Positions 688-61,983 of a stretch of 64,000 nucleotides of DNA are shown here, one piece after another. Source of the DNA: Candidatus Woesearchaeota archaeon CG10_big_fil_rev_8_21_14_0_10_37_12 (lineage in GTDB: Archaea; Nanobdellota; Nanobdellia; Woesearchaeales; ARS49). Positions within the stretch are counted from its first letter, which is position 1; every line of letters begins with the position of its first letter. The notes beneath the pieces are model-generated. The model saw nothing but the letters and a program-made list of their open reading frames with translations. It made no database searches and was not told where the DNA came from. The stretch spans positions 801 through 64,800 of the forward strand of contig PCYA01000017.1 in the NCBI GenBank assembly GCA_002762795.1, in the 5' to 3' direction. A program made the translations under genes and the position numbers.

Positions 688-1494
688 TTGTTTATGGAAA
701 TAAATTGGAAGCAATTGGTTGAGCAAGAGGCATTGCTTAGGGGTTATTCAAAAAAGACTATTGAGAATTACATCTTTCAAATTGGTCGCTTTCTCAAGAG
801 TGGAAAACAAGCGCGCGAGTATTTGCTTCTTCTCATAAATCAAGGAAAATCCAACGAAACAATACGTCTAACAAATTTTGCAATAAAATTCTATTATTCC
901 GTTATTAATAGCACAGATGAAAACTTAGATTTGATCTTAAAAAATTTGCCGAACTCTAAAAGAGCTAAAACGCTGCCGAATATTCTCTCTAAAGAAGAAA
1001 TACAAAGAATGATTGAAGTAACAAAAAACATCAATCACAGGCTTATTATTCAGCTTGGCTATTCTGCGGGATTGAGAGTTAGTGAAATAATCAATCTGAG
1101 CTGGGAAAATATTGATTTTGACAGAAATATGGTTCACATAAAACAAGCAAAAGGCAAAAAGGACAGAGTTGTTATGCTTTCAACAAAAGTCAAAGAAGCT
1201 CTTGCCTCTTTTACTGCTGAAAAAATGGGGTTACTTTTCATAACAACAAGAGGAACAAAATACACACAAAGAACAATCCAAAAAATTCTAGAAAACGCAG
1301 CAAAAAAAGCTAAAATAAACAAACACGTAACACCACACACTCTTCGTCATAGCTTTGCGACACATTTGCTAGAACAAGGAACTGACATAAGATACATAAA
1401 GGATTTGTTGGGGCATTCGGATATTCGCACTACTATGATTTATACGAAAGTATCAAACAAAGACATATCAAAGATCAAAAGCCCTTTGGATTAA
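688..1494 (+). CDS. xerA: tyrosine recombinase (XerA/XerC-like integrase)
   Basis: C-terminal catalytic motifs LRVSE...HTLRHSFATHLLEQG...LGHSDIRTTMIYTKV (R..HxxR..Y) of the phage-integrase/Xer family; 268 aa as in archaeal XerA. Confidence 0.75.
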   Translation: MFMEINWKQLVEQEALLRGYSKKTIENYIFQIGRFLKSGKQAREYLLLLINQGKSNETIRLTNFAIKFYYSVINSTDENLDLILKNLPNSKRAKTLPNILSKEEIQRMIEVTKNINHRLIIQLGYSAGLRVSEIINLSWENIDFDRNMVHIKQAKGKKDRVVMLSTKVKEALASFTAEKMGLLFITTRGTKYTQRTIQKILENAAKKAKINKHVTPHTLRHSFATHLLEQGTDIRYIKDLLGHSDIRTTMIYTKVSNKDISKIKSPLD

Positions 1495-10475: not shown

Positions 10476-11714
10476 ATGAAAAAAACAGTATTACTAGCGG
10501 CTATCGCGATTTTGCTTTTAGTTGTTGCATGCGCACCGACAGCACCAGATAATGGAACAAACGAAACAACAGAAGAACCAATAAATAATTCTGCAGATAC
10601 AACAGTAGATACAACGGATGCTGAGGATTCAAATGGCGCAGAAGAACAAACACAAGAAATTTCAGAATCAGAAGAAGCTGAATCTGCAGAAGAAGTTGAC
10701 CTTAGTGATGTTCCAAAGAAACAAGTTACAGAAGGGGACCTTGTCGGCTTTCCTAACTTACGCGCAGTAGACCCTGACGGAGACCCAATCATATATACTT
10801 TCACTGCGCCACTTAATGAGAATGGCGAGTGGAGAACAAAAGAAGGAGATGCAGGAGAACATGTTGTTACTATTACAGCAAGTGACGGAACACACACAGT
10901 ATCTCAGCAAGTTCTCATAACTGTGTTGGCAAAAAATAAAGCACCAGTAATAATGCTTGATCAAGAAGAACCAATAGTTGCATTAGAAGGGGAAACATTC
11001 ACACTTACATCAACTGTTACAGACCCTGACGGAGATGATGTTAAAGTGACATACTCTGGATGGATGACTTCTGACACGCGGGAAGTAAGTTATGATGAAG
11101 CAGGATTGCGCAAAGTTGTAATAACAGCAACAGACGGTAGCGCAACCACAGCAAAAGAAGTACTTATACAAGTAGAAAACGTTAACAGAGCACCAACAAT
11201 ATCCTCAATAAACAATGTAGAAATCAAAGAAGGAGAAAAAATTATTGTTCGACCAACGACACAAGATCCAGATGGTGACAAACTCGTTATAACATACAGT
11301 GAACAGTTTGATGATCTTGGCGTATGGATCACAGAAGCAGGCGATGCAGGAGAATACACGATTACTATAACAGTAAGTGATGGTGAATTTACAGCAGAAG
11401 AAACGTTTAACGTCAAAATAAACGAAATTAATAAAGCACCAGTAATTGAGTTAGACAGCCCAATACAAGTCAGAGAAGGAGAAACAGTGACATTGACACC
11501 AACAATCACAGACAAAGAAGGAGATGAAATAAGAGTAACTTACTCTGGCTGGATGAATAGCAACACAAAAAGAACAACATACGATGATGCAGGAGACCAT
11601 ACAGTAACAATAACAGCAAGAGACTCAGCAGGCAACGAAGCAAAAATGGATGTTGTAATTTCTGTTGAAAATGTAAACAGACAGCCAATCTTTGGAGCAG
11701 GAAGCTTTAATTAA
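10476..11714 (+). CDS. cell-surface protein with four tandem cadherin-like repeats
   Basis: Signal peptide ending in a lipobox-like VVAC, acidic linker, then four ~85-aa repeats each with DPDGD and VENVNRAP-type (cadherin DxNDN-AP-like) motifs; strong SD aaggggg upstream. Confidence 0.7.
   Translation: MKKTVLLAAIAILLLVVACAPTAPDNGTNETTEEPINNSADTTVDTTDAEDSNGAEEQTQEISESEEAESAEEVDLSDVPKKQVTEGDLVGFPNLRAVDPDGDPIIYTFTAPLNENGEWRTKEGDAGEHVVTITASDGTHTVSQQVLITVLAKNKAPVIMLDQEEPIVALEGETFTLTSTVTDPDGDDVKVTYSGWMTSDTREVSYDEAGLRKVVITATDGSATTAKEVLIQVENVNRAPTISSINNVEIKEGEKIIVRPTTQDPDGDKLVITYSEQFDDLGVWITEAGDAGEYTITITVSDGEFTAEETFNVKINEINKAPVIELDSPIQVREGETVTLTPTITDKEGDEIRVTYSGWMNSNTKRTTYDDAGDHTVTITARDSAGNEAKMDVVISVENVNRQPIFGAGSFN
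10731..11705 (+). repeat. intragenic tandem repeats (4 x ~250 bp) encoding the cadherin-like domains
   Basis: Periodic recurrence of gacccwgayggwgay and gaaaaygtwaacag(a)gcacca. Confidence 0.5.
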
Positions 11715-11761
11715 CTTTTATTTTTTTTAATTACTTTTTTTAGTATTTTTTTCTCAGAGGG

Positions 11762-11769
11762 TTTATAAG
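11762..11769 (+). promoter_or_regulatory. TATA box for the sigma-54-type AAA+ gene (leaderless)
   Basis: tttataag 23 bp upstream of the ATG at 11792, preceded by a T-rich terminator of the upstream gene. Confidence 0.35.
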
Positions 11770-11791
11770 TCAACAATATTTTAATAAGAAC

Positions 11792-12949
11792 ATGAGTGGA
11801 GCAGGAACTAGTAGAGGCATATCTCACTATGACCCATATACGGGAAGATATTCTGTAAATGGATCTGAAGGAAAAAGAAATGCTATTATTGGCAAATCTG
11901 GGCCTATGATTGGCCTTTTTTATGTTGTAGATGGACTAGCAAACGGAAATTGTCCTGTCAGGATTCATGGAGAAACAGGCACTGGAAAAGAATCAGTGGC
12001 GCGTGCTTTACATTATAATGGTAAACGTGCTCAGTTCCCTTTCGTTATTGAAAATTGTGGAGGAGTGCCTCCTCAGCTTTTAGAAGATAGACTATTTGGT
12101 CACGTAAAAGGCGCGTTTACAGGTGCAGTCAATTCATATTCTGGAAGTATTGTTAACGCAAATGGAGGCACGCTGTTTTTGGATGAAATTGGTGATATGC
12201 CTCTTGAATTGCAGGGTAAACTTCTTCGTGTGCTTGAAGAACGTGAAGTTGTTCCATTGGGAAGTACAACACCTGTGCCTGTTGATTTTCGTCTTGTTAC
12301 TGCAACACATAGAGATTTAGAAGAATTAACTCGAGAAAGAAGGTTCAGAAAAGATTTGTTTTACCGAATTTCTGGCTGGAACTTAGATGTTCCTTCACTG
12401 AGTGAACGAGAAGATGATGTATTGCAGCTAACAGATTATTTTCTTTCACGATACGCCCCAGATAAAGATATTGCATTATCCAACAAATTAATTCAGGAGT
12501 TGAAGCATCATTCTTGGCCAGGCAACATACGCCAATTGGAATCCGCAGTGCACCGAGCAGTAACAGCGCATTATGGATTTTTTAACTCGCAAAATGATAT
12601 TTTATTAGTTTCTGATTTTGAACCTAACTTTGGTGCACATACAACTCTCGATACAAAACAAACTCCGCGCCTTCACTATCTGAAAGTAGGCGTTGTCTCA
12701 TATTCAGAACTACAACAAATTGATGGCGTCCTTACTGGAAATGCACTCCGTCAAGTTCTTTCTGCGCATGGACAACCAATTTCTCAAAATGGAAACGCAC
12801 CAGAACTCTATGTTGTTACCGAAAGAACACTTCCTTACTTGGTTTCACCACAAGCAGCAAACCGTTCTGCAACAGTAGGAAGACTAGATGTTCTGCTTAC
12901 AGAAAGAGACGCAGTTATACAAGCTTTAAGAACCTCTCTTAATACCTAA
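11792..12949 (+). CDS. sigma-54 interaction (bEBP-type AAA+) domain protein, no receiver or HTH domain
   Basis: Walker A GETGTGKE, ...NCGGVPPQLLEDRLFGHVKGAFTGA with an intact GAFTGA loop, Walker B GGTLFLDEIGDM, Arg fingers, WPGNIRQL; CGT/CTT-rich codon usage unlike neighbours. Confidence 0.85.
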   Translation: MSGAGTSRGISHYDPYTGRYSVNGSEGKRNAIIGKSGPMIGLFYVVDGLANGNCPVRIHGETGTGKESVARALHYNGKRAQFPFVIENCGGVPPQLLEDRLFGHVKGAFTGAVNSYSGSIVNANGGTLFLDEIGDMPLELQGKLLRVLEEREVVPLGSTTPVPVDFRLVTATHRDLEELTRERRFRKDLFYRISGWNLDVPSLSEREDDVLQLTDYFLSRYAPDKDIALSNKLIQELKHHSWPGNIRQLESAVHRAVTAHYGFFNSQNDILLVSDFEPNFGAHTTLDTKQTPRLHYLKVGVVSYSELQQIDGVLTGNALRQVLSAHGQPISQNGNAPELYVVTERTLPYLVSPQAANRSATVGRLDVLLTERDAVIQALRTSLNT

Positions 12950-13582
12950 CACTTTTAATTTTCTGTGTAAAGTTTCAAATCGCAAACCGATTTTTCTGGC
13001 AGTTTTGGAAATATTCCATTTGTTTTCTTCTAATGCTTTTTCAAAATACATTTTTTCAAACTCTAATTCTGCTTCTTTTAATGTTGCAGGTTTTTCAGGA
13101 AGTTCTTTGCTAATGTCTTCAGAAAGTTGTGGAGCTTCAGCATAAAATGCTTTGTATCGATCAAGACTTAACGCGCTTTTGTACTGTTCTAAAGAGTCTT
13201 GAATTATGTCTTGCACGGCCAAGCGCTTCACGTATTTTCCTTTTTGCATGATGTCGCGAAATTTTTCAACTTCAATTTTCATTTCAGCAATAAAGCGATG
13301 AATGCTTCGCCTATCAACATTGGCAAATTTTGCAACATCTGCAACATTGCCAAAATTTAATTGCAATAGCTTAGCAACATATTCTTTTTTGAATTTCTTT
13401 TTTGCTTGCTTGAACTTTAAATTTGTATTAATTTCAAAATCCAGCAAGCTGCTTTTTTTGAGCTTGTCAGAAATATCGCTTTCTAGCTCAGTAATTGTAA
13501 TGCCGAGTTTTGTGTGCATAGCATCTTCTAACAAAGGTTTAATTTTTTGTTCTACAAGGCGCTCTAATTGCTCATCAATCAT
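12926..13582 (-). CDS. protein with two Fis-type HTH_8 domains
   Basis: FGNVADVAKFANVDRRSIHRF and EENKWNISKTARKIGLRFETLHRKLK both match the HTH_8 consensus (GN.s.AA..LGisR.TLyRKLK); convergent with, and overlapping by 24 nt, the AAA+ gene. Confidence 0.7.
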   Translation of the reverse strand: MIDEQLERLVEQKIKPLLEDAMHTKLGITITELESDISDKLKKSSLLDFEINTNLKFKQAKKKFKKEYVAKLLQLNFGNVADVAKFANVDRRSIHRFIAEMKIEVEKFRDIMQKGKYVKRLAVQDIIQDSLEQYKSALSLDRYKAFYAEAPQLSEDISKELPEKPATLKEAELEFEKMYFEKALEENKWNISKTARKIGLRFETLHRKLKVLGIKRGS

Positions 13583-13645
13583 GACTGAATTGTCACAGTT
13601 TTATTATTTAAATGTTTTGCAAAAACTGTGACAAAAAAAGCACAT

Positions 13646-25834: not shown

Positions 25835-26785
25835 TTAAGAACTTCTTCGGTCGCCGTTGAATCTGCCTGTTGTTTTACCGTATGCTTTTCCAGCAGCAGC
25901 CAACAAACGAGTGGTATATTTTTTTAAACGGCTTGTTTCTGGCTTAATATGCAACGGAATTGGTCTTACTGATTCTCCAACTTCGACGATGCGAACTGCA
26001 TTTCGCTCGTGTTTGGAGTCAAGTAAAGCTTCGTCAGCAGCAGTTCGCAATCCAGCAAACCGCTCAAGCATATACGGTTCATCGCCGTGTTCAATACGGA
26101 TGACATCTTCTGCAGTAGGTTTCCATAATGCAACTCCGACGCTGATTGTAACGGGAATTCTCGCATTTTCTCCATATCTTAAACTATCGTGCTTGAATTC
26201 GTAGCCAGCAACACGTTCAACCAATTGTTTTGCACGATGATATGCGACTTCTGCAGGAGTATTGTACTTAGCCCTTTTTAAATCAATTTGGTCCATCACT
26301 GCAGCAAACTCATCACCGCCAATGTGACCCAGCGCATCACCTTTTCTTGCCCACGCTTCCATGTGTCTACCAAGTCCAATTATTACGTAATCGCCTGCAT
26401 CATGGCCATGATGATCATTAATTTGTTTAAATTTATCTCCGTCGAGAAAAACAACTGCAAGAGGTCTCCTTGTTTTTCTGTATTCTCGCATCCCTCTGCT
26501 TAATGCATTTGGACCAGCAACTTCTTGAAAATAGGTTTTGTTAAACAAGCCAGTCATAGGATCAATAGCAACTCTGCGTTCTAAGGCATAAACTTTTGCT
26601 TCTAAAGCTTCTTTTTGATATTTGAGGAGGTCTCTTTCTGTTGTAACTCTTCGTAAATCGCGTTCAGCAGTGTTAACCCACCAGCTATTAAATTCAGCAA
26701 CATCAGCAAGAGCTATGCGTTCTGCTAAGTGTCTGTCTTCTTTGTTTTGATATGCTTCGTAGGTTTCTTCACCCATTTTCTTCAC
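25835..26785 (-). CDS. GGDEF-domain diguanylate cyclase with N-terminal coiled-coil
   Basis: DPMTGLFNK...RPLAVVFLDGDKFKQINDHHGHDAGDYVI...RKGDALGHIGGDEFAAV: intact GGDEF active site and RxxD I-site five residues upstream; no TM or sensor domain. Confidence 0.85.
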   Translation of the reverse strand: MKKMGEETYEAYQNKEDRHLAERIALADVAEFNSWWVNTAERDLRRVTTERDLLKYQKEALEAKVYALERRVAIDPMTGLFNKTYFQEVAGPNALSRGMREYRKTRRPLAVVFLDGDKFKQINDHHGHDAGDYVIIGLGRHMEAWARKGDALGHIGGDEFAAVMDQIDLKRAKYNTPAEVAYHRAKQLVERVAGYEFKHDSLRYGENARIPVTISVGVALWKPTAEDVIRIEHGDEPYMLERFAGLRTAADEALLDSKHERNAVRIVEVGESVRPIPLHIKPETSRLKKYTTRLLAAAGKAYGKTTGRFNGDRRSS

Positions 26786-27014: not shown

Positions 27015-29030
27015 ATGCACAAGCGGGCACAGCTTACGATATTTATCATCATAGGCATAATTCTTCTTATCAGCATAGCAACAGTTGTCTACTTCACGCA
27101 GAAAAAAGCAACACAACCGCTGGAACACATAAGCCCTGTTCCAGAAGACGTTAAACCAGTTTATGATTACGTAACGACTTGTTTAAATCAAATAAGCAAA
27201 GATGGAATTAACTTGCTTGGAGCACAAGGCGGTCACATAAACATCCCGTCAATAATTGAACGGACACCAACAGCATACATTGCAAATGATCCAGCAGAAA
27301 TATCAAAACTCCCGCACTGGTATTATGAAGGAGAAGACAGAACACCAACGCTGGAATTCATGCAAACAGAGTTATCGAGATATGTTCGTGATAACTTGCC
27401 GGAATGTATTAACAACTTTGCAGCATTTCAACCAAGATATTCTATAAGACCAATCACTAACAGCGTTCCTGTTATAACAATTGCAGACGAAACAGTGCTT
27501 GTGCAACTCAATTGGATCCTTCAAGTTGACACTCCAGAACGAACAACACAAATTGAAACATTCATCACAAACCATCCAGTAAAACTCAAACAAGCATGGC
27601 AGCTTGCAAAAGATGTCATGGAAACAGAAAACAAAGAAGACTGGCTAGAAAACTTAACAATAGATTTCATGAGTGCGAACACAAACATACCAATAAGTGG
27701 AATGGAATTCAGTTGTGGAAGAAAAAGATGGCTGCTCAGTCAAGTAAAAAAAGAATTGCAAGACATGCTTTATTACAATGTTCCATACATAAGACTTGCG
27801 AACACAAATTTGCCCGAACCAATAGAATCAGAAAGAACATATGAAAACTTGAAAAAAGAAAAACAAAAAATTCACAATGATTTGTTGAAAGGAAATCAAC
27901 CAGACTGGCCAGAAGACACGCCAACAGATGCATATGAAATTAACAGAATGACATGGAATACGGGCACGAGAAAAACAGATCTTAAAGCAGCATTTCAATA
28001 CCAGCCGCAATGGACAATGCAATTAAACGCGCAACCAAACTCAGGAAATCAATTAGTAAGCGGTAAATTTCAAGGAGCACGAAAATACCTCAGATTCTTC
28101 TGCATAAATCAGTGGCATTTTACATACGATGTGATTTACCCAATAAAACTTGCAATCAAAGATGAAACTGCATTTTATGGAGATGGCTATTTGTTCCAAA
28201 TGAGCTTCCCTGTTATTATCCAAGATAATGCGCCAAGCAGAGCATACTATGGCCACAGACGATTTGATGATATAATAACAGACGGAGAATTCTGCACTAC
28301 ATTCAGCAACCAACGAGCAGACATCAGAGTCAGAGGTTTGGAAGAAGGCGCAATTTTTGCAGAAGAACTTGAAGAAGTAAACATAAGCTATTCATGCTTT
28401 AATCAATATTGCACATTAGGACAAACACGAGCAGACTCTGCAGGAATCATTCGCTTGCAAACATATCTTCCGCAAGGTTGCGGCAATCCAGTAATTCATG
28501 CAGAAAAAGAAGGTTATATTCCAGCGCAAATACATGCAACAGAAGAAAACGTTGAACTCACACTAACACAACTCAAAAAAATGAATTACACAATCATGGT
28601 TCACCCATACAATCCTGTAACAAACACATGGCTGGACAGTCAGATAACAACTATATCACCGACTAGAGATCCAACAAGAAAAGCAAGTATTGCAGTTATT
28701 GTAAACACAGCAGATTATGAGCAATACTATGAATATCCAAGCCCGCAAAACAATACTCAAGCAGATTTTGTATACGGAGATGCTAGATATGATCTTGATA
28801 TAATTTTGCTTAAAGGCGAAAACCCAATAGGCGGCTATCACGCAGAAAACATCAGCATAACATACGAAGAGGTTGCAGGAATGAATAATGCAATATTCCA
28901 TGTCATAGAATGGCAAGGTGCACTCGACAGAAACTTTGATCCGGTAAACATGTTTGAGTTCATCTACGAAACAGGAATGCACAGAGGCAAACAATACGCA
29001 GAAGTACTCAAACCAACATTCACACCATGA
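27015..29030 (+). CDS. large N-terminally anchored extracellular protein
   Basis: 671 aa, one N-terminal TM helix, many N-glycosylation sequons and paired Cys; stop overlaps the next start (ATGA). Confidence 0.6.
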   Translation: MHKRAQLTIFIIIGIILLISIATVVYFTQKKATQPLEHISPVPEDVKPVYDYVTTCLNQISKDGINLLGAQGGHINIPSIIERTPTAYIANDPAEISKLPHWYYEGEDRTPTLEFMQTELSRYVRDNLPECINNFAAFQPRYSIRPITNSVPVITIADETVLVQLNWILQVDTPERTTQIETFITNHPVKLKQAWQLAKDVMETENKEDWLENLTIDFMSANTNIPISGMEFSCGRKRWLLSQVKKELQDMLYYNVPYIRLANTNLPEPIESERTYENLKKEKQKIHNDLLKGNQPDWPEDTPTDAYEINRMTWNTGTRKTDLKAAFQYQPQWTMQLNAQPNSGNQLVSGKFQGARKYLRFFCINQWHFTYDVIYPIKLAIKDETAFYGDGYLFQMSFPVIIQDNAPSRAYYGHRRFDDIITDGEFCTTFSNQRADIRVRGLEEGAIFAEELEEVNISYSCFNQYCTLGQTRADSAGIIRLQTYLPQGCGNPVIHAEKEGYIPAQIHATEENVELTLTQLKKMNYTIMVHPYNPVTNTWLDSQITTISPTRDPTRKASIAVIVNTADYEQYYEYPSPQNNTQADFVYGDARYDLDIILLKGENPIGGYHAENISITYEEVAGMNNAIFHVIEWQGALDRNFDPVNMFEFIYETGMHRGKQYAEVLKPTFTP

Positions 29031-32000
29031 AACAAACAAAATTATTGCTATTCATTTTTATTTTGCTAGCAACGCTTGTAAACGCGCAAGAAATAAACAT
29101 AACAAACGTGAATGTTAATCACACAAACCAAACAAGTGTTATCACATGGCAAACACAGCCAGCAGCAACAAGCCTTCTTCAATACGGCATTAATAATCTT
29201 GCACAAAACGCATCAGACAACAACGTAACAGTGCAACATAGAATAGAAATACCAACAACGCCAGGAGAAACATACCAGTACATCATTACAAGCTGTGCAA
29301 ACCAAAACTGCACAAGCATGCAACCAGCAACATTCACTGCAGGAAACTTCTTTGTCACAGCAGACATACCAACACATGTACGAACAGCAAATATTGATAT
29401 TACAGGAAGAACACAATCAGGAGCAACAATAAGATTAATACTTAACGGAAGAGACTTGCGAACATTAACCACGCAAACAAATACATTCTTGTTCCGAGAT
29501 ATTCAGCTCGACTCATCTAATAATACAATCATTATCCGCGCAACATCAGCAACAGGAGAAACAACACAAAAAAACTATCCTGTACGACTTGATAACTCTC
29601 CAGCAAGAGTATCAATAAACACAACTGCATTCACAACAGAAAAACCAGCACCATTGCGAATAGTAACTTCAGAGCCAGTACAATTGAACATCACAATACA
29701 ACAACTGGATGATGGAAATGAAACAAAAGAAGTGCAACATAATATCACTCTCGCAGGAACAATACAAATTCCAGTAGAATTATACGATGGAAGAAACAGG
29801 ATCAGCATTATTGCAACAGATTATGCAGGATTCACAACACACACAGAAACAGAAATTTATTATGATTTTGGACCGCCACAATTCTTAGAAACAAACCTTA
29901 ACCAATTAACGCCAAGCTACAGCAGATTAATACGCGTAAAAGGAACACTCAGCGAACCAGCAAGCGTGACAGTATTTCTCAACAATGAACCAGAAGAAAC
30001 AGTACAAACAGACAGCAACAATAAGTTCAACATACCAATAAACCTCAAACAATTCGCACAACTTGACAGAAGCCAAGCACCAAACAGAACAACATTGGAA
30101 ACAGGACTAGCATGGCGAAACAACATAAGATTAGAAGCAATAGATGCAGCAGGAAGAATAACAGCAATACAAGGAGATGTTGTTTACGCAAGCTGTTCAC
30201 AAGATGGACTCATAGATGTTGTTGTAACAGAGCCGCTGCCAGACATACTGAACACAAGATTATTAGTGGAAGGATTGCAGCAAGTCGGATTGTCGTTTAA
30301 CTACAGTTACAGAGGAGATCAGGAAGCAATCATCAGACCAGCAGACATAAGAATGCATAAACTCACACCAGGACAGGCATTCCAAAATGAATATGACAAC
30401 GCGCTCGCTACAGTTGCAAAACCAGGAGTAAAAGCAGCAAGCCAAACAGACGGCATAGGATATATCCAAGTAAACTTCAACTCCATAGAAGATCCATGGG
30501 CATTACCAGAAACAGGAAACGCGCCGCAAGCAACAGAACCTCCTTCAAATAATCCAACACTGTTTGACAAAGAAGATAGACTATCAGATCATAGAAAAGG
30601 AGACTGCTTGCTTCCGGGCTTTGGATGCATGCGAATTCTACTACAAATAGAAATACCATACCAAGAAAGCAGCGCAAGATATTACACAGGATCACAAAGA
30701 ACAACAACACAAACAGGGCAACAACCATTAGCACAAGATCTTGTTGACCTAAATGAACGCGTGCACAGAACATGCTTACCAATAGAAGTAGCAATAGACA
30801 GAAGAATACCTCCAGAAAAACTCGGAAGCAGTTTCCTGAACCACACATCAAGAGTTCTTGGCGAAATTGTAGAGAACATAGACAAAGTACTCAAACCAGT
30901 GGAAAATGTTGGACGATTCTTGTTCTACTCCTGTCTTGCAAGCACAGGATTAATGTACTTGCCAAGCCTAAACGAAAGATGGACGTGCAAATACAGCAAC
31001 GCTGTAAACTTATTTAACAGAGACCTAGACGAATCAGCAACATTCAATGAGGGAGTTGCTGCAATAGGAAAATGTGAAGATTTCTACACAGGAGAAGCAC
31101 TTGAAAACTGCAAATCGTGCAGCGAAGCAAAAACAACATTCAACAATTACAAATACTATTACCAGCAAATCTGCGACAGAGTAATGTGCGGAGCAGCACC
31201 AAGCTTACAAACTTACTTGCGAGTAAAAGGACGAACAACACTCGAAAAAATAGAAGGATCAGGATATGAAGCAGGAAGCGACTGTGCAATGTGGATGAAA
31301 GAAAAAGGCAAAATCGGCACAGGAAAAAGAGGAGCAGTTATTTTTTCGTATCAGGAAATAGAAGGAATATACAAAGACTGGTTGGAACACCAAAGTGATG
31401 ATGCAGATGACACAGGATTTTCAGGGGAAGTGAACTGTGCAGGGTTGCACCCAGCTGACGCAAGCTGTTGCGGATATGAATACATGCAGGAATGGAGCAG
31501 CGCTTGCGGAGTAAGCATAGGTGGTGGAGGTCTTGACTTATTCGATGAAATTAAAGAAAGCACATGCTTGAGTGCGCAAAACGCAAACAAAAATGAAATA
31601 CCGGGAGCAGGAGACACAACGATACAATGCAGCAGATTAACAAATGCTCTCAGTGGATTCTGTGATGCAAATGGAGGACCGCCACTAGAACCAATACGAG
31701 TTATGCACTTTGAAGGCGGAGACTCAGGAGTAACAGGCAAAGTACGCCAATTAGGATTAGCAACTAACAAGGAAAAATTCATGTACGTCCTAATAAAAGA
31801 AAATACAGGAGGGCAAACACAAGAAAAGCACTCAATAATGCTTGGATTTGTAGCTGAGAAAGTAAAATACGCACAAACACCGCAATCAGCAACATTTGCA
31901 GAAGAAGATATATTCAGCATTAATACGCAAACAGAAGCAAGAGTTATGCCTGGAGGGTATGAGCTACAACAACAATTCTTCAGAGAAGAACAAACAGCAG

Positions 32001-35000
32001 CTTATTATCAAGGACAGCTTGATGATAACTTTTACACACAATTCGGCAACTATCTTTGTAACCAAGCAGGATATTCTGGACTGCCTTGCCAAGATGGAGA
32101 CTTTACACGAGATGATGCCAAAGACGTTTACGCAAGAGTCATGCAATACATTGGAGATCCAGAACAAGAATACATTGTCAACCCAAGCTCTGGAGTAATA
32201 AATGCAGCACGATGCTTGTGCTTCCCAACACTCATTAGCTTCCTAAAAACTTGGAGGAATATACTGCAAGCAGTGCAAAACTGCGTTAACAGCATAATAT
32301 TAACAGGAGACGGAGATGCAGGAATCTGCCAAGAAGGAGTAACAATACCAATGTGCGATTTGTTATACGATGCAATTGCGTGTTTCACACAACGATTCGG
32401 AGCAGGAGGAGGACGAATAGGACTAGGAGGAGGAGATCCAATAGGAGCTCTCACCAGCGCAGGGGCACAAGTATCACGAACAGTAGAAAGCAGATACGGT
32501 ACGACAAACATGTATCAGGCAACATTCGGAGACAGAAAACTTGTGCATAGCATTTGTTTGTTTGCATTCACAGGAACATGGAACCTTGATCCTTCTGCAT
32601 TATTTGACCAAGCACTCGAAGACGTTCCAACAGAAAGTTATACATTGTTGTATCCTTGTCAGAGAAGGTACGTAAGCTATGATCCTACAACAACACCGGG
32701 AGGTTTAGTAACATGGGTGTACAATTTCGGTGCAGGAATAGCAGCAGGAGCAAACTTAGACGTAGACTTTAAACTCAAATGCAGTGCAGACAGAAGTTGT
32801 CTTCCATCAGAAGGTTTTGAAGGCGGCAAGTGTGATTGTGAAGAATCAGGACAAGAAAAATACTTGCCAATCAGACCACAAGGAACACCAACAAGAGTAG
32901 CAAAAGGAGAAATTTTCAATCAACCAGTGTACTTCACGTTAAAGGGTAATCCAAGAGATGGTTCAACAAGATATGATACGTTAATTATGACTCACAGATG
33001 GAGAGATCAAGGGAAAATAGCAGAAAAACAAACAGAATGCAAAATAGGCCAGGCAGGAGGACCGTTAAGCGTGCCTCCGCATTGTAAATTTGACGCGGCA
33101 ACATTAAGCTTTAGGTGCATGCTTGGAGAAGACGAAGGAGCAATCAGTTTATTGGGCTCAACAGTAGATGCACAGCACAACATACCAAACCCGGCATTTG
33201 CATTAGGAGAAGAACTCAACATTACGCTCGATGTAAGGCAAGCATACCCAAGACAAGACGCAATGTTCAACAAATATTTGGAGTACGCAGTCATGAATTC
33301 AGCAGGGCAAACAGTTGCAACAAATAAAGACGAAGCACTGCATCCCTTGACAACAAACGGCGATTACAAAATAAGAACAACAAACAGAGGAATATTCAGA
33401 ACACAATTAACTGTTACAGAAGACTGGTTCGGAACGCAGCAACAAACAGGCAGAAATTACCAGACAAGCACATGGAACAAAAATGAGCCTAGTGTGTTGT
33501 CGCCAAATGATGAAGGATTAATCGCAGATGTTTTGTTAACAGATGCTACAGGAAATACAAAAACAGAACAATCAGCGTTTGTTATCGAATTTTCCAATGA
33601 AAATGACCAAACAACATGGAAACTATTTGATGGAGGATCAAGAAGAAAATCAGCAGCAGGAATACAAAAAGGAAACCAATTAACAGGAGGAGTGTATAAC
33701 CCAACAACCACAATCATCTTCTATCAGGGAACAACAGCACAATCACAAATTGTCAGAGATCCAAATGCACCAGCAGGAGTACGAGTTGTACAAAGTGCAA
33801 ACGCAAATATCAGAATAACATTCAACAATATGCCTGTGCTTGCGCCAGGAGAACGAAAACAAATCTTAGTAGAATGGCAAAAACAACCAGAACTCGGAGC
33901 ATGCACTGACGAAACAAAAAGACAACAACCACAAAGATTCACCATAACATTCTCAGCATTTGATGCTGACGAAAACGGAAACCCAAGCAACCAAGTAAGC
34001 GTAGATCCAAACACAGGAACACCAGCACAATTGCAAGTACCATTTTTTGCAGTATGTTCAGAACCTTCAGCAATTGCACATTTGGAAACAGCAAACAATG
34101 AAACAATGATCAAACAATTCATGAGAGACATCCACGACGAATTTGGAAAAGCAAAAATAGAACAACAAGAATATCTTACAAGAATTGATGCATTTTTAGC
34201 ATCATCATACCCATTAGATACTCAGCAAGGAAAAGGAGATGTAGTATCAAGATTAGAGGCATTATTAACATATGAATCATTACATTACAACAAAATACAA
34301 GGATTTGTTAATAGACTAACAAGCTTGCCTACAGAGAACAGAATAGCAGGAGTTGATGAATTTGAAACACTTCTGAACAGATATAATGTTGAATTAGGAG
34401 TTGCAATTAGAGTAATCAGAGGAATGAAAGATGACATCAGACAAAGCAGTTTAAGACAAGAAATAGGACCAGCATTACTAGAGATTAAAACAAAACTTAC
34501 AGAATTAATGCAGACTAAAGACCAAGCAATACAGGCAACACAAGAAATAATCTTATTCAGACCAACAACTACAACACAACAATTAAGCCAAAGAGACCCA
34601 GCAACAACACCTTTGTTAGCAAATGATAGGAAAATATTGGAAGAAATAAAAAGATTGATTGAACGTCATCAACAAATAACTCCCATTTCCGCAAAAAATA
34701 GTCAAATAATAGAAATAAATAGGCTTTTCAACTATACTTTTACAGGTGTCACTGTTGAGTATGTTTATAACTTTATTAAAGCAATTAATATAACACAAAC
34801 CACACATTCTCAAACATATAGTGGGCACATAGGCAGACTTTCTTCAGAAGAACGAACAACCAGCATAGTTCAACTTGAAATAGAACTCATGCAATTCTTA
34901 ACACATACAAGATCAGTGCTGCCAAACCTTCAATTAACTGCGTATAAACAACAATTACAACAAATAAATTCAAGTTTCACACAAATCACACAAGCAGAAG

Positions 35001-35830
35001 ACGCAGTGCTAGCATACATTACTCAAAGATTAACAGCGCCAGAAGCGCAAGTAACAGCACAACCAACAATAGACGCGTCAACAAAAGAAGGACAATTGCA
35101 AGCACTCAAAACAGCAATAGAAACAGCAAGACGTGATCGAGAACCTTATTTGCTTACTTTCCAAGATTATGTAACTAATCCAGCAACAATGCCAAATGAT
35201 CATGTACAATTTAGAAATAGTTACGCGAGAGCGCAACAAGTAGAAATACAAAACATGCAAGCATTAGAAACAATACAAATAAATCAATTACCAGACATAA
35301 TTAAACAAGACGTAGAATTGCTTAAGTTCAATATGGGAACAATTACAACAGGAAGTATTGGCAGGTTTATACAGAACATACAAAGTGCTGATTTGCAACA
35401 ACTTAAGAGTCAAGTTCCTGAAATGCACCAGAAATATCAGCTAATAACTGGCCAAGAAGATAGCATTCTCAGACAAATAGACCAAGAACTCAGTTCTTCT
35501 GGATCGGGTGGAGCAGCAGGACCACCACAAGTTCAAACACCTCCGGCACAACCACAACAAACAACACTAGAAGATCAACAAAAACTTGGTGCACTCAAAA
35601 TCATCATTGAAGCAAACCAACAAATAAGAACTAATCACAAACAAAGAATAACAACATATCTCCCGGCACTTGCACCTGGAAATAAAGAAACAGTCAGAAA
35701 CCTAATACGAGCAATACAAGAAACAGAAAGCAGATACGCGAGAAATGTTGAATTAGCTCATATTGGGTTGTCCAGTCAAGAGTTAAGAGCAATACCACAA
35801 CTTGCAGCATTAAAATTCACAACAGACTAA
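29027..35830 (+). CDS. giant secreted surface protein (2267 aa): sequon-rich N-terminus, Cys-rich middle, Gln-rich coiled-coil C-terminal third
   Basis: Signal peptide MKQTKLLLFIFILLATLVNAQE, >60 NxS/T sequons, dense Cys clusters between aa 600-1300, Q-rich heptad-like region aa 1550-2260. Confidence 0.7.
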   Translation: MKQTKLLLFIFILLATLVNAQEINITNVNVNHTNQTSVITWQTQPAATSLLQYGINNLAQNASDNNVTVQHRIEIPTTPGETYQYIITSCANQNCTSMQPATFTAGNFFVTADIPTHVRTANIDITGRTQSGATIRLILNGRDLRTLTTQTNTFLFRDIQLDSSNNTIIIRATSATGETTQKNYPVRLDNSPARVSINTTAFTTEKPAPLRIVTSEPVQLNITIQQLDDGNETKEVQHNITLAGTIQIPVELYDGRNRISIIATDYAGFTTHTETEIYYDFGPPQFLETNLNQLTPSYSRLIRVKGTLSEPASVTVFLNNEPEETVQTDSNNKFNIPINLKQFAQLDRSQAPNRTTLETGLAWRNNIRLEAIDAAGRITAIQGDVVYASCSQDGLIDVVVTEPLPDILNTRLLVEGLQQVGLSFNYSYRGDQEAIIRPADIRMHKLTPGQAFQNEYDNALATVAKPGVKAASQTDGIGYIQVNFNSIEDPWALPETGNAPQATEPPSNNPTLFDKEDRLSDHRKGDCLLPGFGCMRILLQIEIPYQESSARYYTGSQRTTTQTGQQPLAQDLVDLNERVHRTCLPIEVAIDRRIPPEKLGSSFLNHTSRVLGEIVENIDKVLKPVENVGRFLFYSCLASTGLMYLPSLNERWTCKYSNAVNLFNRDLDESATFNEGVAAIGKCEDFYTGEALENCKSCSEAKTTFNNYKYYYQQICDRVMCGAAPSLQTYLRVKGRTTLEKIEGSGYEAGSDCAMWMKEKGKIGTGKRGAVIFSYQEIEGIYKDWLEHQSDDADDTGFSGEVNCAGLHPADASCCGYEYMQEWSSACGVSIGGGGLDLFDEIKESTCLSAQNANKNEIPGAGDTTIQCSRLTNALSGFCDANGGPPLEPIRVMHFEGGDSGVTGKVRQLGLATNKEKFMYVLIKENTGGQTQEKHSIMLGFVAEKVKYAQTPQSATFAEEDIFSINTQTEARVMPGGYELQQQFFREEQTAAYYQGQLDDNFYTQFGNYLCNQAGYSGLPCQDGDFTRDDAKDVYARVMQYIGDPEQEYIVNPSSGVINAARCLCFPTLISFLKTWRNILQAVQNCVNSIILTGDGDAGICQEGVTIPMCDLLYDAIACFTQRFGAGGGRIGLGGGDPIGALTSAGAQVSRTVESRYGTTNMYQATFGDRKLVHSICLFAFTGTWNLDPSALFDQALEDVPTESYTLLYPCQRRYVSYDPTTTPGGLVTWVYNFGAGIAAGANLDVDFKLKCSADRSCLPSEGFEGGKCDCEESGQEKYLPIRPQGTPTRVAKGEIFNQPVYFTLKGNPRDGSTRYDTLIMTHRWRDQGKIAEKQTECKIGQAGGPLSVPPHCKFDAATLSFRCMLGEDEGAISLLGSTVDAQHNIPNPAFALGEELNITLDVRQAYPRQDAMFNKYLEYAVMNSAGQTVATNKDEALHPLTTNGDYKIRTTNRGIFRTQLTVTEDWFGTQQQTGRNYQTSTWNKNEPSVLSPNDEGLIADVLLTDATGNTKTEQSAFVIEFSNENDQTTWKLFDGGSRRKSAAGIQKGNQLTGGVYNPTTTIIFYQGTTAQSQIVRDPNAPAGVRVVQSANANIRITFNNMPVLAPGERKQILVEWQKQPELGACTDETKRQQPQRFTITFSAFDADENGNPSNQVSVDPNTGTPAQLQVPFFAVCSEPSAIAHLETANNETMIKQFMRDIHDEFGKAKIEQQEYLTRIDAFLASSYPLDTQQGKGDVVSRLEALLTYESLHYNKIQGFVNRLTSLPTENRIAGVDEFETLLNRYNVELGVAIRVIRGMKDDIRQSSLRQEIGPALLEIKTKLTELMQTKDQAIQATQEIILFRPTTTTQQLSQRDPATTPLLANDRKILEEIKRLIERHQQITPISAKNSQIIEINRLFNYTFTGVTVEYVYNFIKAINITQTTHSQTYSGHIGRLSSEERTTSIVQLEIELMQFLTHTRSVLPNLQLTAYKQQLQQINSSFTQITQAEDAVLAYITQRLTAPEAQVTAQPTIDASTKEGQLQALKTAIETARRDREPYLLTFQDYVTNPATMPNDHVQFRNSYARAQQVEIQNMQALETIQINQLPDIIKQDVELLKFNMGTITTGSIGRFIQNIQSADLQQLKSQVPEMHQKYQLITGQEDSILRQIDQELSSSGSGGAAGPPQVQTPPAQPQQTTLEDQQKLGALKIIIEANQQIRTNHKQRITTYLPALAPGNKETVRNLIRAIQETESRYARNVELAHIGLSSQELRAIPQLAALKFTTD

Positions 35831-36610: not shown

Positions 36611-37168
36611 TTGGCACATATGGTTCAAAAAAGAAACAATGTTGAGTTGGAAATTATAGATCTATTGTTTAAAAAAGAGAATCATGTCAGAGGAATATCT
36701 AAAAAACTAAATGAATCTCATTCTACAATATCGAGAAAATTAAACTATCTTAAAGATGAAAACGCGATTGATTATGTGCGGGAAGGAAAAAATAAGGTGT
36801 TTTTTCTGAAAAAAAACATCGTTGCACAAAGTTACATTCTAACCTCAGAAATACACAAACTAATAAAATTATTGAGAATATGCCCAGAATTAAGCGTTAT
36901 TTTTGAAGAAATGCTAAATAAAACAGATGAAAAATTAATCATTCTTTTCGGATCCTACGCAAAAGGGCTTGCTAAAAAAGACAGCGATATAGATGTTTAT
37001 ATTGAGACAAAAAACAAAACCGTTAAAAAAATTGTTGAGGATATAAATTCAAAAATCAGTGTTAAAATTGGTACATTCGATATTGACTCTCCGCTCGTTA
37101 AGGAAATAATAAAAGATCACATAATTATCAGAGGAGTTGAAAAATTTTATGAAAAACAATTTTCTTGA
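36611..37168 (+). CDS. winged-HTH fused to a minimal nucleotidyltransferase (MNT antitoxin-like)
   Basis: N-terminal wHTH (HVRGISKKLNESHSTISRKLNYL), then LFGSYAKGLAKKDSDIDVYIE = GSx9-10DxD Pol-beta NTase motif. Confidence 0.7.
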   Translation: MAHMVQKRNNVELEIIDLLFKKENHVRGISKKLNESHSTISRKLNYLKDENAIDYVREGKNKVFFLKKNIVAQSYILTSEIHKLIKLLRICPELSVIFEEMLNKTDEKLIILFGSYAKGLAKKDSDIDVYIETKNKTVKKIVEDINSKISVKIGTFDIDSPLVKEIIKDHIIIRGVEKFYEKQFS

Positions 37169-37628
37169 AAAACTAAAAAAAGAAGAAAAACTAGAACTGA
37201 TCGACCCTTCAGAGAACATCCATGATTCTTACTTGGAAAAATCCAATAACTGTATGAAAGCAGCAAAATTATTGTTGCAAAACAAATTATATGAGAACTC
37301 TATCGGGATGTCTTATTATGCGATGTATGACTTGCTTGTAGCATTATTATTCAGAGTAGGAATTAAATGCGAGAATCACTCAGCAGCAATTCTATTGCTC
37401 AAATCACTATTTGAAAATGATGAATTGTTTAAACTTATTTCGAATGCAAAAAAAGAAAGAATTGATAAACAATATTATATAACGACTGAAAAAGATACTG
37501 TGACTGAAGAAATAGCAAAAGAATTATTAACTCATGCGGAATACTTTGTTTTAAATCTGAAATCAATTATTGCCAGATTAAAAAACGAGGATGTTCCTAA
37601 AATCAGAGAAAAATTCAAAACATTATAA
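37137..37628 (+). CDS. HEPN-domain protein (toxin-like partner of the MNT)
   Basis: All-helical 163 aa; overlaps the MNT gene by 32 nt; HEPN-MNT gene order; Rx4-6H not clearly assignable. Confidence 0.55.
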   Translation: MKNFMKNNFLEKLKKEEKLELIDPSENIHDSYLEKSNNCMKAAKLLLQNKLYENSIGMSYYAMYDLLVALLFRVGIKCENHSAAILLLKSLFENDELFKLISNAKKERIDKQYYITTEKDTVTEEIAKELLTHAEYFVLNLKSIIARLKNEDVPKIREKFKTL

Positions 37629-41373: not shown

Positions 41374-41622
41374 TTGGAGATGAAGGAGGAAAACATGGCA
41401 GAAAACAAAGATGAGCAGATTGGCTTTCATAAAGGATCATTAACAACGCTTGCAAAAGAAAGACAAGAACTTGCACGCATGCTTCAAATAGTTGAACAAT
41501 TAATGCAAGCACACATCAAAGCACTTAAAGATTTGGGCGTTGATTTAGAAGCACAAGCAAAGCAAGCAAAAGAACCAGTTAAAGAAAGTAAACCATTAGA
41601 AGAGGCAATCAGAAAAGCATGA
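41374..41622 (+). CDS. small coiled-coil protein
   Basis: 82 aa, heptad pattern; stop overlaps the next start. Confidence 0.35.
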   Translation: MEMKEENMAENKDEQIGFHKGSLTTLAKERQELARMLQIVEQLMQAHIKALKDLGVDLEAQAKQAKEPVKESKPLEEAIRKA

Positions 41623-53929: not shown

Positions 53930-54169
53930 ATGGTGACAATAACTGTGAATGTGGATGATGAAACAGATGCTAGATTTAGAGAAACCGTAAAAGAAAAACT
54001 TGGAACTGGAAAAGGAACTCTCGGAACTGCAATAGCAGAGGCACTCAACAACTGGGTAAATGAAAAACAGGAAGAAGAAATAACCAAAAGACAGTTGTAT
54101 TTGCTGCATAAATCTCGAAAACTAGTGAAATATGTTTTCAACAGAGAGGATGCATATGGCCGATACTAA
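53930..54169 (+). CDS. VapB-like antitoxin
   Basis: ~80 aa directly upstream of, and overlapping, the PIN gene; TATA tttaaata 25 bp upstream of ATG 53930; ORF track start 53909 is TTG. Confidence 0.45.
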   Translation: MVTITVNVDDETDARFRETVKEKLGTGKGTLGTAIAEALNNWVNEKQEEEITKRQLYLLHKSRKLVKYVFNREDAYGRY

Positions 54170-54599
54170 CAGACAAATTTTTTTTATTGACACGAACATT
54201 TTAGTTTATGCATACAACAAAACCGATACTCGAAAACAAGCCGTTGCGATTAAGCTATTAGAGCGTTGCTGGCAAAAACAAGCAGCATACGCGCTCTCTT
54301 CTCAAAATCTTGCTGAGTTTTTTAATGTTTCAATATACAAAATACGTGAATCCTTATCCATTGATGAGGCTGAAAAAATAATAAAAGACATTTGCACATT
54401 CTCTCATTGGAGCATTTTCAATTACGATCACGAGACTGTTCAACACGCTATAGGCTTATGCAAAAGCAAAAATACTCACTTTTGGGATGCAGTACTTGCA
54501 GCAACCATGCTTGAAACAGGCGTTCTACATATTTACACAGAAAATGTGAAAGATTTTAGCAAATTTGATGGGATAACTGCAGTGAATCCGTTTGAGTAA
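54156..54599 (+). CDS. vapC: PIN-domain ribonuclease (VapC toxin)
   Basis: IFFIDTNILVYAY (first acidic residue), central E, HFWDAVLAATML, C-terminal D; start trimmed to ATG 54156, overlapping vapB by 14 nt. Confidence 0.8.
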   Translation: MADTNRQIFFIDTNILVYAYNKTDTRKQAVAIKLLERCWQKQAAYALSSQNLAEFFNVSIYKIRESLSIDEAEKIIKDICTFSHWSIFNYDHETVQHAIGLCKSKNTHFWDAVLAATMLETGVLHIYTENVKDFSKFDGITAVNPFE

Positions 54600-57853: not shown

Positions 57854-58627
57854 TCATAATGCTTTTCTCAACTTTTGTGCAGCTTTTTGCGCAATTTTTA
57901 TCATTTCATCAACATCTTTTAGTGTAAGAGGGGACTGGCCGCCTTTTTGCAAAGCACAAACAGTGTCCTTCTCAGTAACACCAACAGTTAATCTTGCTTC
58001 AACTACTTTTTCTTCATCTGAAAGAGGGTCAACAAAGAACTGATCACCTACTTTCAAAACAGTAACTTCCAAAGGTTCACGCTTTAGAGGCAACTTATTT
58101 TTCGTTCTTTCTTCATAATTTGCTTTGCCCTCTTTCGTTAAACCAGGAAACTTTGCATCTTTCAATGCTGCAAGAGCAGCCAATGCAGCAGCATCAAACA
58201 AATTGCCTGCATCGTTTATTGAACAAACATCAATCATTACTCCCCAGGCATTCTCTCCGGGAGAAATGCACAATTTCTTAACATCGATAGATTTGCTTTC
58301 TCTTATGCTCCTGTCAACAACACGGGCGAGTTCTGTTGCTTGATCACCAGGAGGACCTGGTTCAAATTCAGGATTGCTCATTGGCAACAATTCAGCGTTA
58401 ACCATTAAATTACCTTCATTAGGTCTGTCTGGGTATGGAGTTGCTGTTTCTAATTTAATTCCTGCAATCACTTCAGTTTCTCCAATTTTGACTCTTGCAG
58501 AACCTTCTGCACTTCTTGAAATCCCGTATTCTACTGTTATCTCTCTGTAATCAAAAGGTTTTCTGCCATCATATCTGCAATTCTTTTTTAATGCTGCCAA
58601 TAAATGCGCTTTTCTTTCACTGTTCAT
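57854..58627 (-). CDS. rrp42: exosome complex component Rrp42
   Basis: RNase PH-like, 257 aa, [13 protein letters not shown], lacks the Rrp41 catalytic motifs; 4-nt overlap with rrp41. Confidence 0.85.
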
Positions 58628-61494: not shown

Positions 61495-61503
61495 TTTTTC
61501 CTC

Positions 61504-61983
61504 CTAAACCACATATTTTTTCTCAGCTTTCGTTAACATGCCAGAAATTCCAACAGATCTGACAATAACATCTTGATTGTTAATTTTTGTTACTAGTGCT
61601 AAACTTGCCTTCATTTCATCTACACTCATATGTGATACTTTGATTAAACCTCTTTGTTTATTTTGATTAAACTTATCTGCAAAATGCTTAACGCCTATTC
61701 TAGCAGCACCTCTTGTTCCAACAAATGCAAGAACAGAATGCCAGATTGCTCTTGAAACATCAGCAAAAGAAAACCTGCTGCTGCTTATAACTTCAAATGC
61801 AACATAGCGCTTTTTCTCTTTTAATGTTGGCAAAATTGGTTTTAAGCGTTTGCTAATCTTTGTCACGTTTGAACACCTATGTTTTAGGTGCGAAAGAACT
61901 ATTTTTTCCCTCTCGCTCCTGTCTCTCGTACAGGACGTATTAAAAAATGATCCTTTATAAATGTTGTGGATTTGCCTCGCCAT
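61504..61983 (-). CDS. RNase P protein component Pop5 (Rpp14-like); 5' end uncertain
   Basis: KRYVAFEVIS...VIVRSVGISGMLTKAEKKY resembles Pop5; conserved position upstream of psmA; first ~45 aa may be over-extension. Confidence 0.5.
   Translation of the reverse strand: MARQIHNIYKGSFFNTSCTRDRSEREKIVLSHLKHRCSNVTKISKRLKPILPTLKEKKRYVAFEVISSSRFSFADVSRAIWHSVLAFVGTRGAARIGVKHFADKFNQNKQRGLIKVSHMSVDEMKASLALVTKINNQDVIVRSVGISGMLTKAEKKYVV

Follow-up and report, generated by a model that had tools for sequence, protein, structure and literature searches.

A 64,000-nucleotide stretch of DNA from Candidatus Woesearchaeota archaeon CG10_big_fil_rev_8_21_14_0_10_37_12 (assembly GCA_002762795.1, contig PCYA01000017.1, positions 801 to 64,800 of the forward strand; the whole stretch is referred to below as the window) carries a gene whose product is related, by its sequence, to the central ATPase module of bacterial enhancer-binding proteins (bEBPs). 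This open reading frame (ORF), located at 11792..12949 on the forward strand (PIN74708.1, COV18_05810), encodes 385 residues and is convergent with a reverse-strand gene (12926..13582; PIN74709.1, COV18_05815) for a 218-residue protein that contains two Fis-type helix-turn-helix (HTH) domains of the HTH_8 family. Both products are publicly annotated as hypothetical proteins and are called here the AAA+ protein and HTH_8x2. The 3′ ends of the two genes share a 24-nt overlap, the final eight AAA+ codons, including the stop, being antisense to the 3′ end of the HTH_8x2 gene. In the reading that we favour, with a probability of about 0.6, the AAA+ gene is resident and encodes an NtrC derivative truncated at both ends, expressed as an unregulated hexameric ATPase without its canonical substrate, and the two neighbours form no conserved pair.

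According to this reading, the ancestor would have been a bacterial enhancer-binding protein of the NtrC family, of which the central ATPase module alone (approximately residues 112-381) would survive. The gene would have entered a single Woesearchaeal lineage and come to lie, as cargo, in a hyper-variable slot that separates the conserved gene of a PKD protein from the conserved gene of HTH_8x2. Because regulatory and DNA-binding domains are missing, the product would be an unregulated, self-assembling hexameric ATPase, comparable to PspF(1-275). As an orphan, it would be either a passenger that the cell tolerates or an ATPase that has been exapted to another target.

A complete enhancer-binding protein core

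The Pfam family Sigma54_activat (PF00158) matches the AAA+ protein over the full model (positions 1-166 of 168; 199 bits, E=4.2e-59). The match covers residues 32-197 (11885..12382, forward strand) and encloses the Walker A motif, the L1 loop and the Walker B motif. It is followed by the AAA+ lid (AAA_lid_14, PF25601, E=1.8e-14; residues 205-280, 12404..12631, forward strand), which carries the sensor II motif WPGNIRQL. Walker A reads GETGTGKE (11969-11992), the Walker B DE pair corresponds to residues 131-132, the arginine fingers lie in FRKDLFYRI, and the GAFTGA signature of the L1 loop (12110-12127, codons GGC GCG TTT ACA GGT GCA) aligns with the GAFTGA of homologues. Pfam and the alignment thus bear out the first-pass annotation, made from the letters of the window alone, in its description of a bEBP-type central domain with GAFTGA, both Walker motifs, arginine fingers and WPGNIRQL; the HMM (hidden Markov model) search that it proposed returned PF00158 for this protein (with the E-value given above) and HTH_8 (PF02954) for its neighbour. 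Two marks of bEBP membership are present, a Sigma54_activat-type AAA+ domain (with its pre-sensor-I insertion and L1 and L2 loops) and the GAFTGA signature, and ORF 11792..12949, judged by its sequence, belongs with the bEBP AAA+ proteins, in an unusual host, rather than being a new system.

Residues 8-280 align to NtrC residues 112-381 in the NCBIfam model TIGR01818. When compared with 119 bacterial homologues, the core retains 35 of 35 invariant columns and 59 of the 60 columns that are at least 95% conserved, while at columns conserved to at least 80% it scores 80/96, which equals the set minimum and makes it the most divergent member of the set. AlphaFold2 (AF2) models the core with a pLDDT (predicted local distance difference test) of 70-96. 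Membership in a defence system was also considered and rejected, PADLOC having matched solely the generic AAA+ part of its RtcR and PspF models.

Loss of the flanking domains

In contrast to its core, the protein has lost what usually surrounds it. No receiver (REC), GAF, PAS or HTH_8 domain is found in the ORF by Pfam. Only 31 residues precede the core, and they give no Pfam match, and no REC remnant was found in the six frames of 11301-11900. At the other end, where Pfam again finds no HTH_8, an HMM derived from 102 bacterial bEBP C-termini gives no signal in any frame, and the same model detects both HTH units of the neighbouring protein, a positive control. The absence of any such signal agrees with the earlier statement that both the N-terminal regulatory domain and the C-terminal HTH are missing. 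The further remark that the protein stops right where an HTH would start lacks statistical support, since the resemblance of ERDAVIQALR extends over 10 residues and scores -0.9 bits (E=0.08 even with Z=1). A truncated or degenerate HTH_8 in the tail, seen by eye in a MAFFT alignment to the HTH_8 domains of homologues, was likewise set aside as unsupported, yielding only 10-residue HMM matches with negative scores in every frame.

What follows the lid is an orphan C-terminal tail of 105 residues (281-385; 12632..12946, forward strand) without detectable homology or a confident fold. It has no Pfam match even at E<=10, and an exhaustive phmmer search against 1.84e9 representative proteins returned only the protein itself plus two multi-stretch matches (of 5 and 12 stretches); the AF2 pLDDT falls below 50 for residues 272-385, as it does for residues 1-30. 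The first-pass annotation had regarded its view as refutable if the ORF were a frame-shifted fragment of a longer bacterial-type gene, and in an evolutionary sense this is so: the ORF is a fragment of such a gene, because it matches only NtrC residues ~112-381, but it is not accompanied by frame-shifted REC or HTH remnants.

Residence in the archaeal chromosome

The AAA+ gene is resident in the archaeal chromosome. The gene and both of its junctions recur in three further assemblies obtained by different pipelines (JGI, Logan and ENA). The JGI contig of 40.8 kb and the Logan contig of 28.8 kb (L007 and L008 in our numbering of loci) are 100% identical to the window over the overlap, and the ENA contig (L009) has one mismatch in 1695 nt, which is synonymous. 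The G+C content at third codon positions (GC3) is 0.22, compared with a window mean of 0.276 (standard deviation, sd, 0.04), and the codon score is 0.195, compared with 0.184 for the window (sd 0.065), so that both values fall within the window distribution; AGA is the commonest arginine codon and GGA the commonest glycine codon of the gene. The first-pass annotation was therefore mistaken in stating that codon usage sets the gene apart from its AGA/GGA-rich neighbours, and in taking this as evidence of a bacterial origin, the usage being host-like. Host-like codons in an open ORF imply either long residence without decay or a donor of identical composition.

Transcription signals are likewise of the host type. 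The 77-bp intergenic region ahead of the gene (11715..11791, forward strand) contains a TATA-like element, TTTATAAG, at 11762-11769, that is, at -30..-23 from the ATG, and no Shine-Dalgarno sequence precedes the gene, a leaderless geometry. As TTTAWA at -28..-31 is common to the genes of methionyl-tRNA synthetase (MetRS), HTH_8x2 and four other window genes, the archaeal leaderless TATA box ascribed to the AAA+ gene is confirmed by matching geometry. In a second class of window genes, the TATA element sits near -42 and is joined by a ribosome-binding site of the GGTG type. Around the genes, the counts of bacterial sigma-70 promoters and of intrinsic terminators did not exceed the shuffled expectation.

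No signature of insertion by a mobile element was found, whether as a target-site duplication or as flanking inverted repeats. A perfect 11-nt direct repeat, TGGAGCAGGAA, occurs at 11693-11703, in the end of the PKD gene, and at 11797-11807, just past the AAA+ start codon; it marks the left edge of the inserted segment, has no copy at the right edge, and is within chance for 1.5 kb.

NtrC-type regulators have previously been seen in a few archaeal draft genomes, namely two crenarchaea and Thorarchaeota SMTZ1-83, where their authenticity, and hence contamination, was left open (Galperin et al. 2018, PMC5847659). The same suspicion would make the present gene an artefact of assembly or binning, a 1.2-kb bacterial stretch wrongly joined to an archaeal contig. 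This is extremely improbable: both junctions stand in three other assemblies from different pipelines, the codon usage is host-like, the promoter is of archaeal type, and the AAA+ ORF runs 24 nt into the resident HTH_8x2 gene. An artefact of this kind is effectively refuted, and the chimeric contig that the first-pass annotation had named as a second way to be wrong is effectively excluded by the independent assemblies together with the codon usage. Unlike the earlier archaeal cases, the authenticity of this gene is shown by synteny, multiple assemblies and codon usage.

A singleton in a variable slot

Among 5.8e9 proteins, the AAA+ protein is a singleton: the next match after itself scores 248 bits, with 52% identity over 60% of the query, and its nearest relatives are 52-54% identical (best local alignment, ~60% of the query). 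All organism-named matches are bacterial, and nearly all listed matches have bacterial-type NtrC-family architectures (REC or GAF, then AAA, then HTH_8), which upholds the proposed bacterial origin of the core. The best identity over the core is 50.6%, as against a median nearest-neighbour identity of 80% among the homologues. An attempt to name a bacterial donor was abandoned, as the nearest sequences are ~50% identical and mostly unnamed, so that no donor is assignable.

HTH_8x2, by comparison, is widespread. A genome scan placed it in 102 species representatives, and 80 loci were retrieved along with flanking sequence of up to 10 kb. A tblastn search of all fetched loci (1.2 Mb) detected an AAA+ homologue in 0 of the 80 other Woesearchaeal HTH_8x2 loci, so that the co-occurrence expected of a two-gene system is not seen. 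The order MetRS, Lit, PKD protein and then the convergent HTH_8x2 is kept in ~25 species, whereas the distance separating the PKD and HTH_8x2 genes at their 3′ ends varies from 35 bp to 2.9 kb. Elsewhere this slot holds unrelated cargo, including HAD hydrolases, small membrane proteins, a lipoprotein, an alpha/beta-hydrolase-like protein and Tgt+QueA of the bacterial queuosine pathway (L001, L012, L019, L020, L022, L031, L059 and L060, the last with Tgt+QueA). In the window, the gap measures 1.2 kb, and the AAA+ gene with its promoter takes up precisely this space. Compared in this way, the PKD-HTH_8x2 slot is a hot spot of gene gain with the AAA+ gene as its lineage-specific cargo, and synteny together with the variability of the slot indicates that HTH_8x2 predates the AAA+ insertion.

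The two genes are thus best explained as neighbours by accident rather than as a conserved system, the AAA+ gene lying next to HTH_8x2 because the insertion hot spot adjoins the latter. The suggestion, made in the first-pass annotation, that the pair could be a repurposed system of ATPase and DNA binder is not supported, in view of the 80 loci without the AAA+ gene, its singleton status and the unrelated cargo of the slot.

Many metagenome-assembled genomes (MAGs) that carry the HTH_8x2/PKD/Lit/MetRS synteny (L011, L013, L014, L016, L019 and others) are titled 'uncultured Methanosarcinales archaeon', and one carrier (L034) is titled 'Candidatus Binatia bacterium'; such titles probably reflect mislabelled or misbinned records.

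The tandem HTH_8 protein

The conserved gene of the two is that of HTH_8x2, which the first-pass annotation had credited with two Fis-type HTH domains. Pfam alone calls one HTH_8 match in the 218-residue protein (residues 174-210, E=4e-14, 52.4 bits against a cut-off of 22), and the HMM of bEBP C-termini finds two significant copies, in agreement with that description. Copy 1 covers residues 55-106 (27.6 bits, E=1e-10; 13265-13420, reverse strand) and copy 2, the one also seen by Pfam, covers residues 162-215 (E=3e-13; 12938-13099, reverse strand). Although not called by Pfam, the first unit is also recognised by the NCBIfam model of the GlrR C-terminus, which aligns to residues 37-109 (E=2e-8), and the internal repeat is detected by BLASTP (E=5e-4). 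AF2 models the protein as two three-helix units (pLDDT 71). Copy 2 superposes on the DNA-binding domain (DBD) of Aquifex NtrC4 (4fth/3e7l) with ~43% identity, a root-mean-square deviation of 0.5-1.4 A and TM (template modelling) scores of 0.72-0.81 normalised to the target; the PDB profile match of the protein to the NtrC4 DBD has E=3e-9.

The family comprises more than 340 matches, of which the top 120 are nearly all 205-232 residues long (range 174-255) and 53-76% identical, an identity that spans more than 120 clusters; its named members are almost all Woesearchaeota or Nanoarchaeia. HTH_8x2 is at least as conserved as MetRS from the same loci (for example, 77% versus 61% in L014 and 72% versus 62% in L013). 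From these comparisons, HTH_8x2 is taken to be a core, vertically inherited Woesearchaeal family, which appears to be restricted to Woesearchaeota and Nanoarchaeia. No literature on a tandem HTH_8 family was found, and the family is new among DNA binders of the Fis/NtrC type.

A putative operator around the HTH_8x2 promoter

The promoter region of the HTH_8x2 gene (13581..13634, reverse strand) contains a putative operator, whose proximal site TGTGACAATTCAGTCAT (13581-13597) overlaps the ATG, with the TATA box at ~13605-13612. A perfect 13-nt inverted repeat, TTGTCACAGTTTT/AAAACTGTGACAA (13590-13602 and 13622-13634), flanks this TATA box and arises in the window from the inversion of one copy of the element. 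The promoters of orthologues share a bipartite GACA-N6-TCA motif, with the extended consensus AA[CG]T[GA]N-GACA-WWWAAR-TCATAA. The motif takes two preferred positions, one just upstream of the TATA box (-48..-51) and the other between the TATA box and the ATG (-12..-16), where the copy often ends in the start codon. It is found upstream of the gene in 53 of 79 distinct loci, compared with a background of 1.5% per upstream region (binomial P about 1e-77), and also in 31 of the 57 loci whose protein is less than 60% identical to HTH_8x2 of the window. The strict form of the element occurs once in the window, at the HTH_8x2 start codon, and GACA-N6-TCAT was not found at the AAA+ gene or its promoter.

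GACA-N6-TCAT is probably the operator of the tandem HTH_8 protein. Its unlike half-sites, GACA and TCAT, lie one helical turn apart, a spacing that would fit a single chain with two non-identical HTH units. A single HTH_8x2 chain would accordingly be predicted to bind the bipartite, asymmetric GACA-N6-TCAT on both sides of its own TATA box and to repress itself; it is the position of the motif that suggests such autorepression.

A few further strict sites in other loci precede genes for a conserved protein of 81-86 residues and for winged HTH (wHTH)-nucleotidyltransferases. In two loci, the 81-86-residue protein is divergent from HTH_8x2 with an operator-like site ahead of it (L040, site 5259, and L048, site 9913, both on the reverse strand). 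This protein bears the motif IGFHKGAL...VEQLMQ and has a homologue in the window at 41396-41620 (forward strand), 28 kb away, with a TGAC-N6-GTCA palindrome upstream. L001 and L004 have unannotated 81-residue genes in a similar position to the one in L040 and L048. In six loci, strict operator-like sites are located just past the HTH_8x2 3′ end in antisense orientation (L033 10876, L063 10741, L084 10666, L073 1478, L081 2414 and L087 6501, all on the reverse strand), and none of them has an ORF of at least 60 residues downstream. Such sites could be antisense promoters or extra operators.

With both proteins described, a more intimate relation between them can be weighed, namely that they form a split enhancer-binding protein, in which the AAA+ hexamer would dock on HTH_8x2 as the supplier of DNA binding, and the two would jointly remodel an archaeal transcription complex. 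The genes are adjacent, bEBPs normally have these two types of domain fused in one chain, NtrC-type DBDs are what the HTH units most resemble, and GAFTGA is intact. It is nevertheless improbable, as the HTH_8x2 family has no AAA+ neighbour in 80 other species and predates the insertion by synteny, the genes, being convergent, are not co-transcribed, no HTH_8x2 operator lies in the AAA+ promoter, and the arrangement is a single instance in a slot that in other species is occupied by unrelated genes.

The question of a sigma-54 partner

Sigma-54 promoters are defined by a -24 GG and a -12 GC element, and archaeal transcription runs on TBP and TFB. Within the 64-kb window, tblastn with Escherichia coli RpoN found no RpoN-like ORF (best E=0.7), the promoter pattern TGGCAC-N5-TTGCW had no strict or relaxed match on either strand, and no sigma factor domain turned up in general Pfam scans of the 66 largest ORFs. 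The literature search found no report of sigma-54 in archaea and no paper on Woesearchaeota together with sigma-54 or the Fis family. Because archaea use TBP and TFB and no sigma-54 is known there, the AAA+ protein would be without its canonical substrate. A 2025 survey detected no sigma-54-specific enhancer-binding protein in 380 archaeal proteomes (PMC12316311).

A sigma-54 might nonetheless be encoded elsewhere in the genome, or the AAA+ protein might act on that of a bacterial host or partner of the organism, a presumed episymbiont. The GAFTGA loop and its flanking residues are intact, isolated bEBP AAA+ domains can activate from solution (as PspF 1-275 does), and sigma-70-like genes have been described as prevalent in Woesearchaeota, a group in which some members may live as episymbionts on bacteria (Castelle et al. 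2021, PMC8204110). On the other side stand the lack of both an RpoN-like ORF and a sigma-54 promoter in the window, the lack of any reported archaeal sigma-54, and the fact that the AAA+ protein has no recognisable secretion signal and no known delivery mechanism. Action on sigma-54 is consequently very unlikely. Taken more broadly, it is also doubtful, and improbable on balance, that the AAA+ protein has been domesticated, be it for a sigma-54-independent job with HTH_8x2 (on a TBP/TFB/RNA polymerase or sigma-70-like complex) or for work on the sigma-54 of a bacterial host; selection acting on the L1 loop would agree with its intact residues, the host-like codons and the host promoter, and beyond adjacency nothing speaks for domestication.

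Orphan ATPase or decaying relic

An unregulated ATPase that persists without its partner has to be distinguished from a non-functional relic, that is, a bacterial NtrC fragment, recently gained or slowly decaying, which is not under selection and is open by chance. Such a relic would fit a singleton among 5.8e9 proteins that has lost REC and HTH, carries a 105-residue tail without homologue or confident fold, is the most divergent of its set at moderately conserved columns (80/96, the set minimum), and has no known target in archaea. It fits less well with an ORF of 385 codons that is still open and keeps every invariant catalytic residue, with a codon usage that is fully host-like and a promoter of the host type, and with a sole population variant that is synonymous, though one site carries no weight. 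A relic is possible but rather unlikely. The intact core, host-like codons and host promoter argue against free decay, with the limit that selection is not measurable from a single sequence.

Several points weigh against the orphan, unregulated ATPase that we prefer. Without sigma-54, GAFTGA would be expected to drift, and bEBP relatives that do not use sigma-54 are usually without it; its intactness and the host-like codon usage are a hint that some partner keeps the loop under selection. There is also a low chance (~2/number of genes) that a bEBP fragment would come to lie beside the sole HTH_8 gene seen in the window, and, in a case known from a single genome, the AAA+ protein and HTH_8x2 could still be linked in function or mechanism. 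Finally, the absence of rpoN covers the 64-kb window only, in a genome with a largest contig of 784 kb, and the expression and ATPase activity of the protein are what we infer.

Genomic setting

The window is archaeal by its gene content, which includes FttA/aCPSF1, both proteasome subunits, a NOG1-type GTPase, DUF655, FtsZ and the members of an exosome superoperon (Rrp42, Rrp41, Rrp4, SBDS, PSMA and Rpp14). This exosome/proteasome superoperon (57854-61983) is directly upstream of the HTH_8x2 gene in relatives (L001 and L004 were compared) and ~45 kb away here, which indicates that the region has been rearranged on that side too.

The nearest recombinase gene, 10 kb from the AAA+ gene, encodes a tyrosine recombinase (Phage_integrase, E=6e-45; 694-1494, forward strand). 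The window also contains a wHTH-nucleotidyltransferase/HEPN pair, a PIN-domain protein and a Ser/Thr protein kinase (36620-37628, 54132-54599 and 61961-62911, respectively, all on the forward strand). A second bacterial-type signalling gene besides that of the AAA+ protein is found at 25835-26776 (reverse strand) and encodes a 313-residue protein with an intact GGDEF diguanylate-cyclase domain (Pfam E=2.5e-25), in which GGDEF lies within HIGGDEF and an RxxD I-site (RKGD) is placed five residues upstream. Two overlapping large forward-strand ORFs, 27015-29030 (671 residues) and 29027-35830 (2267 residues), have no Pfam match at E<=1e-4; their products may be giant surface proteins or proteins of unknown kind, such as DPANN genomes typically encode. 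Archaea have been reported to be almost devoid of GGDEF domains (PMC5847659).

Relation to known systems and significance

The closest parallels to the AAA+ protein in architecture are PspF(1-275) and the bacterial AAA-only proteins P0009 and P0070 (295-305 residues), which likewise consist of a core with GAFTGA plus a lid and have no receiver. A C-terminal HTH_8 is absent from a minority of true bEBPs, a sensory domain is absent from PspF, and bEBP cores without a DBD, such as PspF(1-275), are constitutively active in vitro. These proteins belong to bacteria that possess sigma-54, P0009 being encoded among Lpt and Kdo genes, whereas the AAA+ protein is found in an archaeon and, unlike them, has a 105-residue orphan tail, an archaeal leaderless promoter and no known target. 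Its best matches are the NtrC-family response regulators (REC-AAA-HTH_8), of which there is precedent in archaeal MAGs; because it has neither REC nor HTH_8, it cannot itself be a response regulator. The sigma-70-like genes of Woesearchaeota (PMC8204110) are comparable in being parts of bacterial transcription without obvious partner machinery, and differ in being prevalent across the group, the AAA+ gene being a one-off.

For HTH_8x2, the nearest known domains are Fis and the C-terminal DBDs of NtrC4 and NtrX (HTH_8, PF02954), which its second unit resembles; its first unit is a diverged copy. Fis and the NtrC DBDs act as homodimers with one HTH each, whereas HTH_8x2 holds two non-identical units in a single 218-residue chain, each preceded by about 55 helical residues.

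The AAA+ gene represents one cleanly authenticated case of a bEBP-type ATPase in an archaeal chromosome, the earlier NtrC-like reports having come from drafts in which contamination was left open. It illustrates what a transferred bEBP gene can look like, trimmed to its motor domain, given a new promoter, recoded to host usage and left alone, and it makes it possible to ask, in a natural setting, if a GAFTGA core can last or take up another function where sigma-54 is missing. The supposed partner is the more generally useful result, since the HTH_8x2 protein and its probable operator provide a concrete entry to the regulation of transcription in an uncultivated DPANN group.

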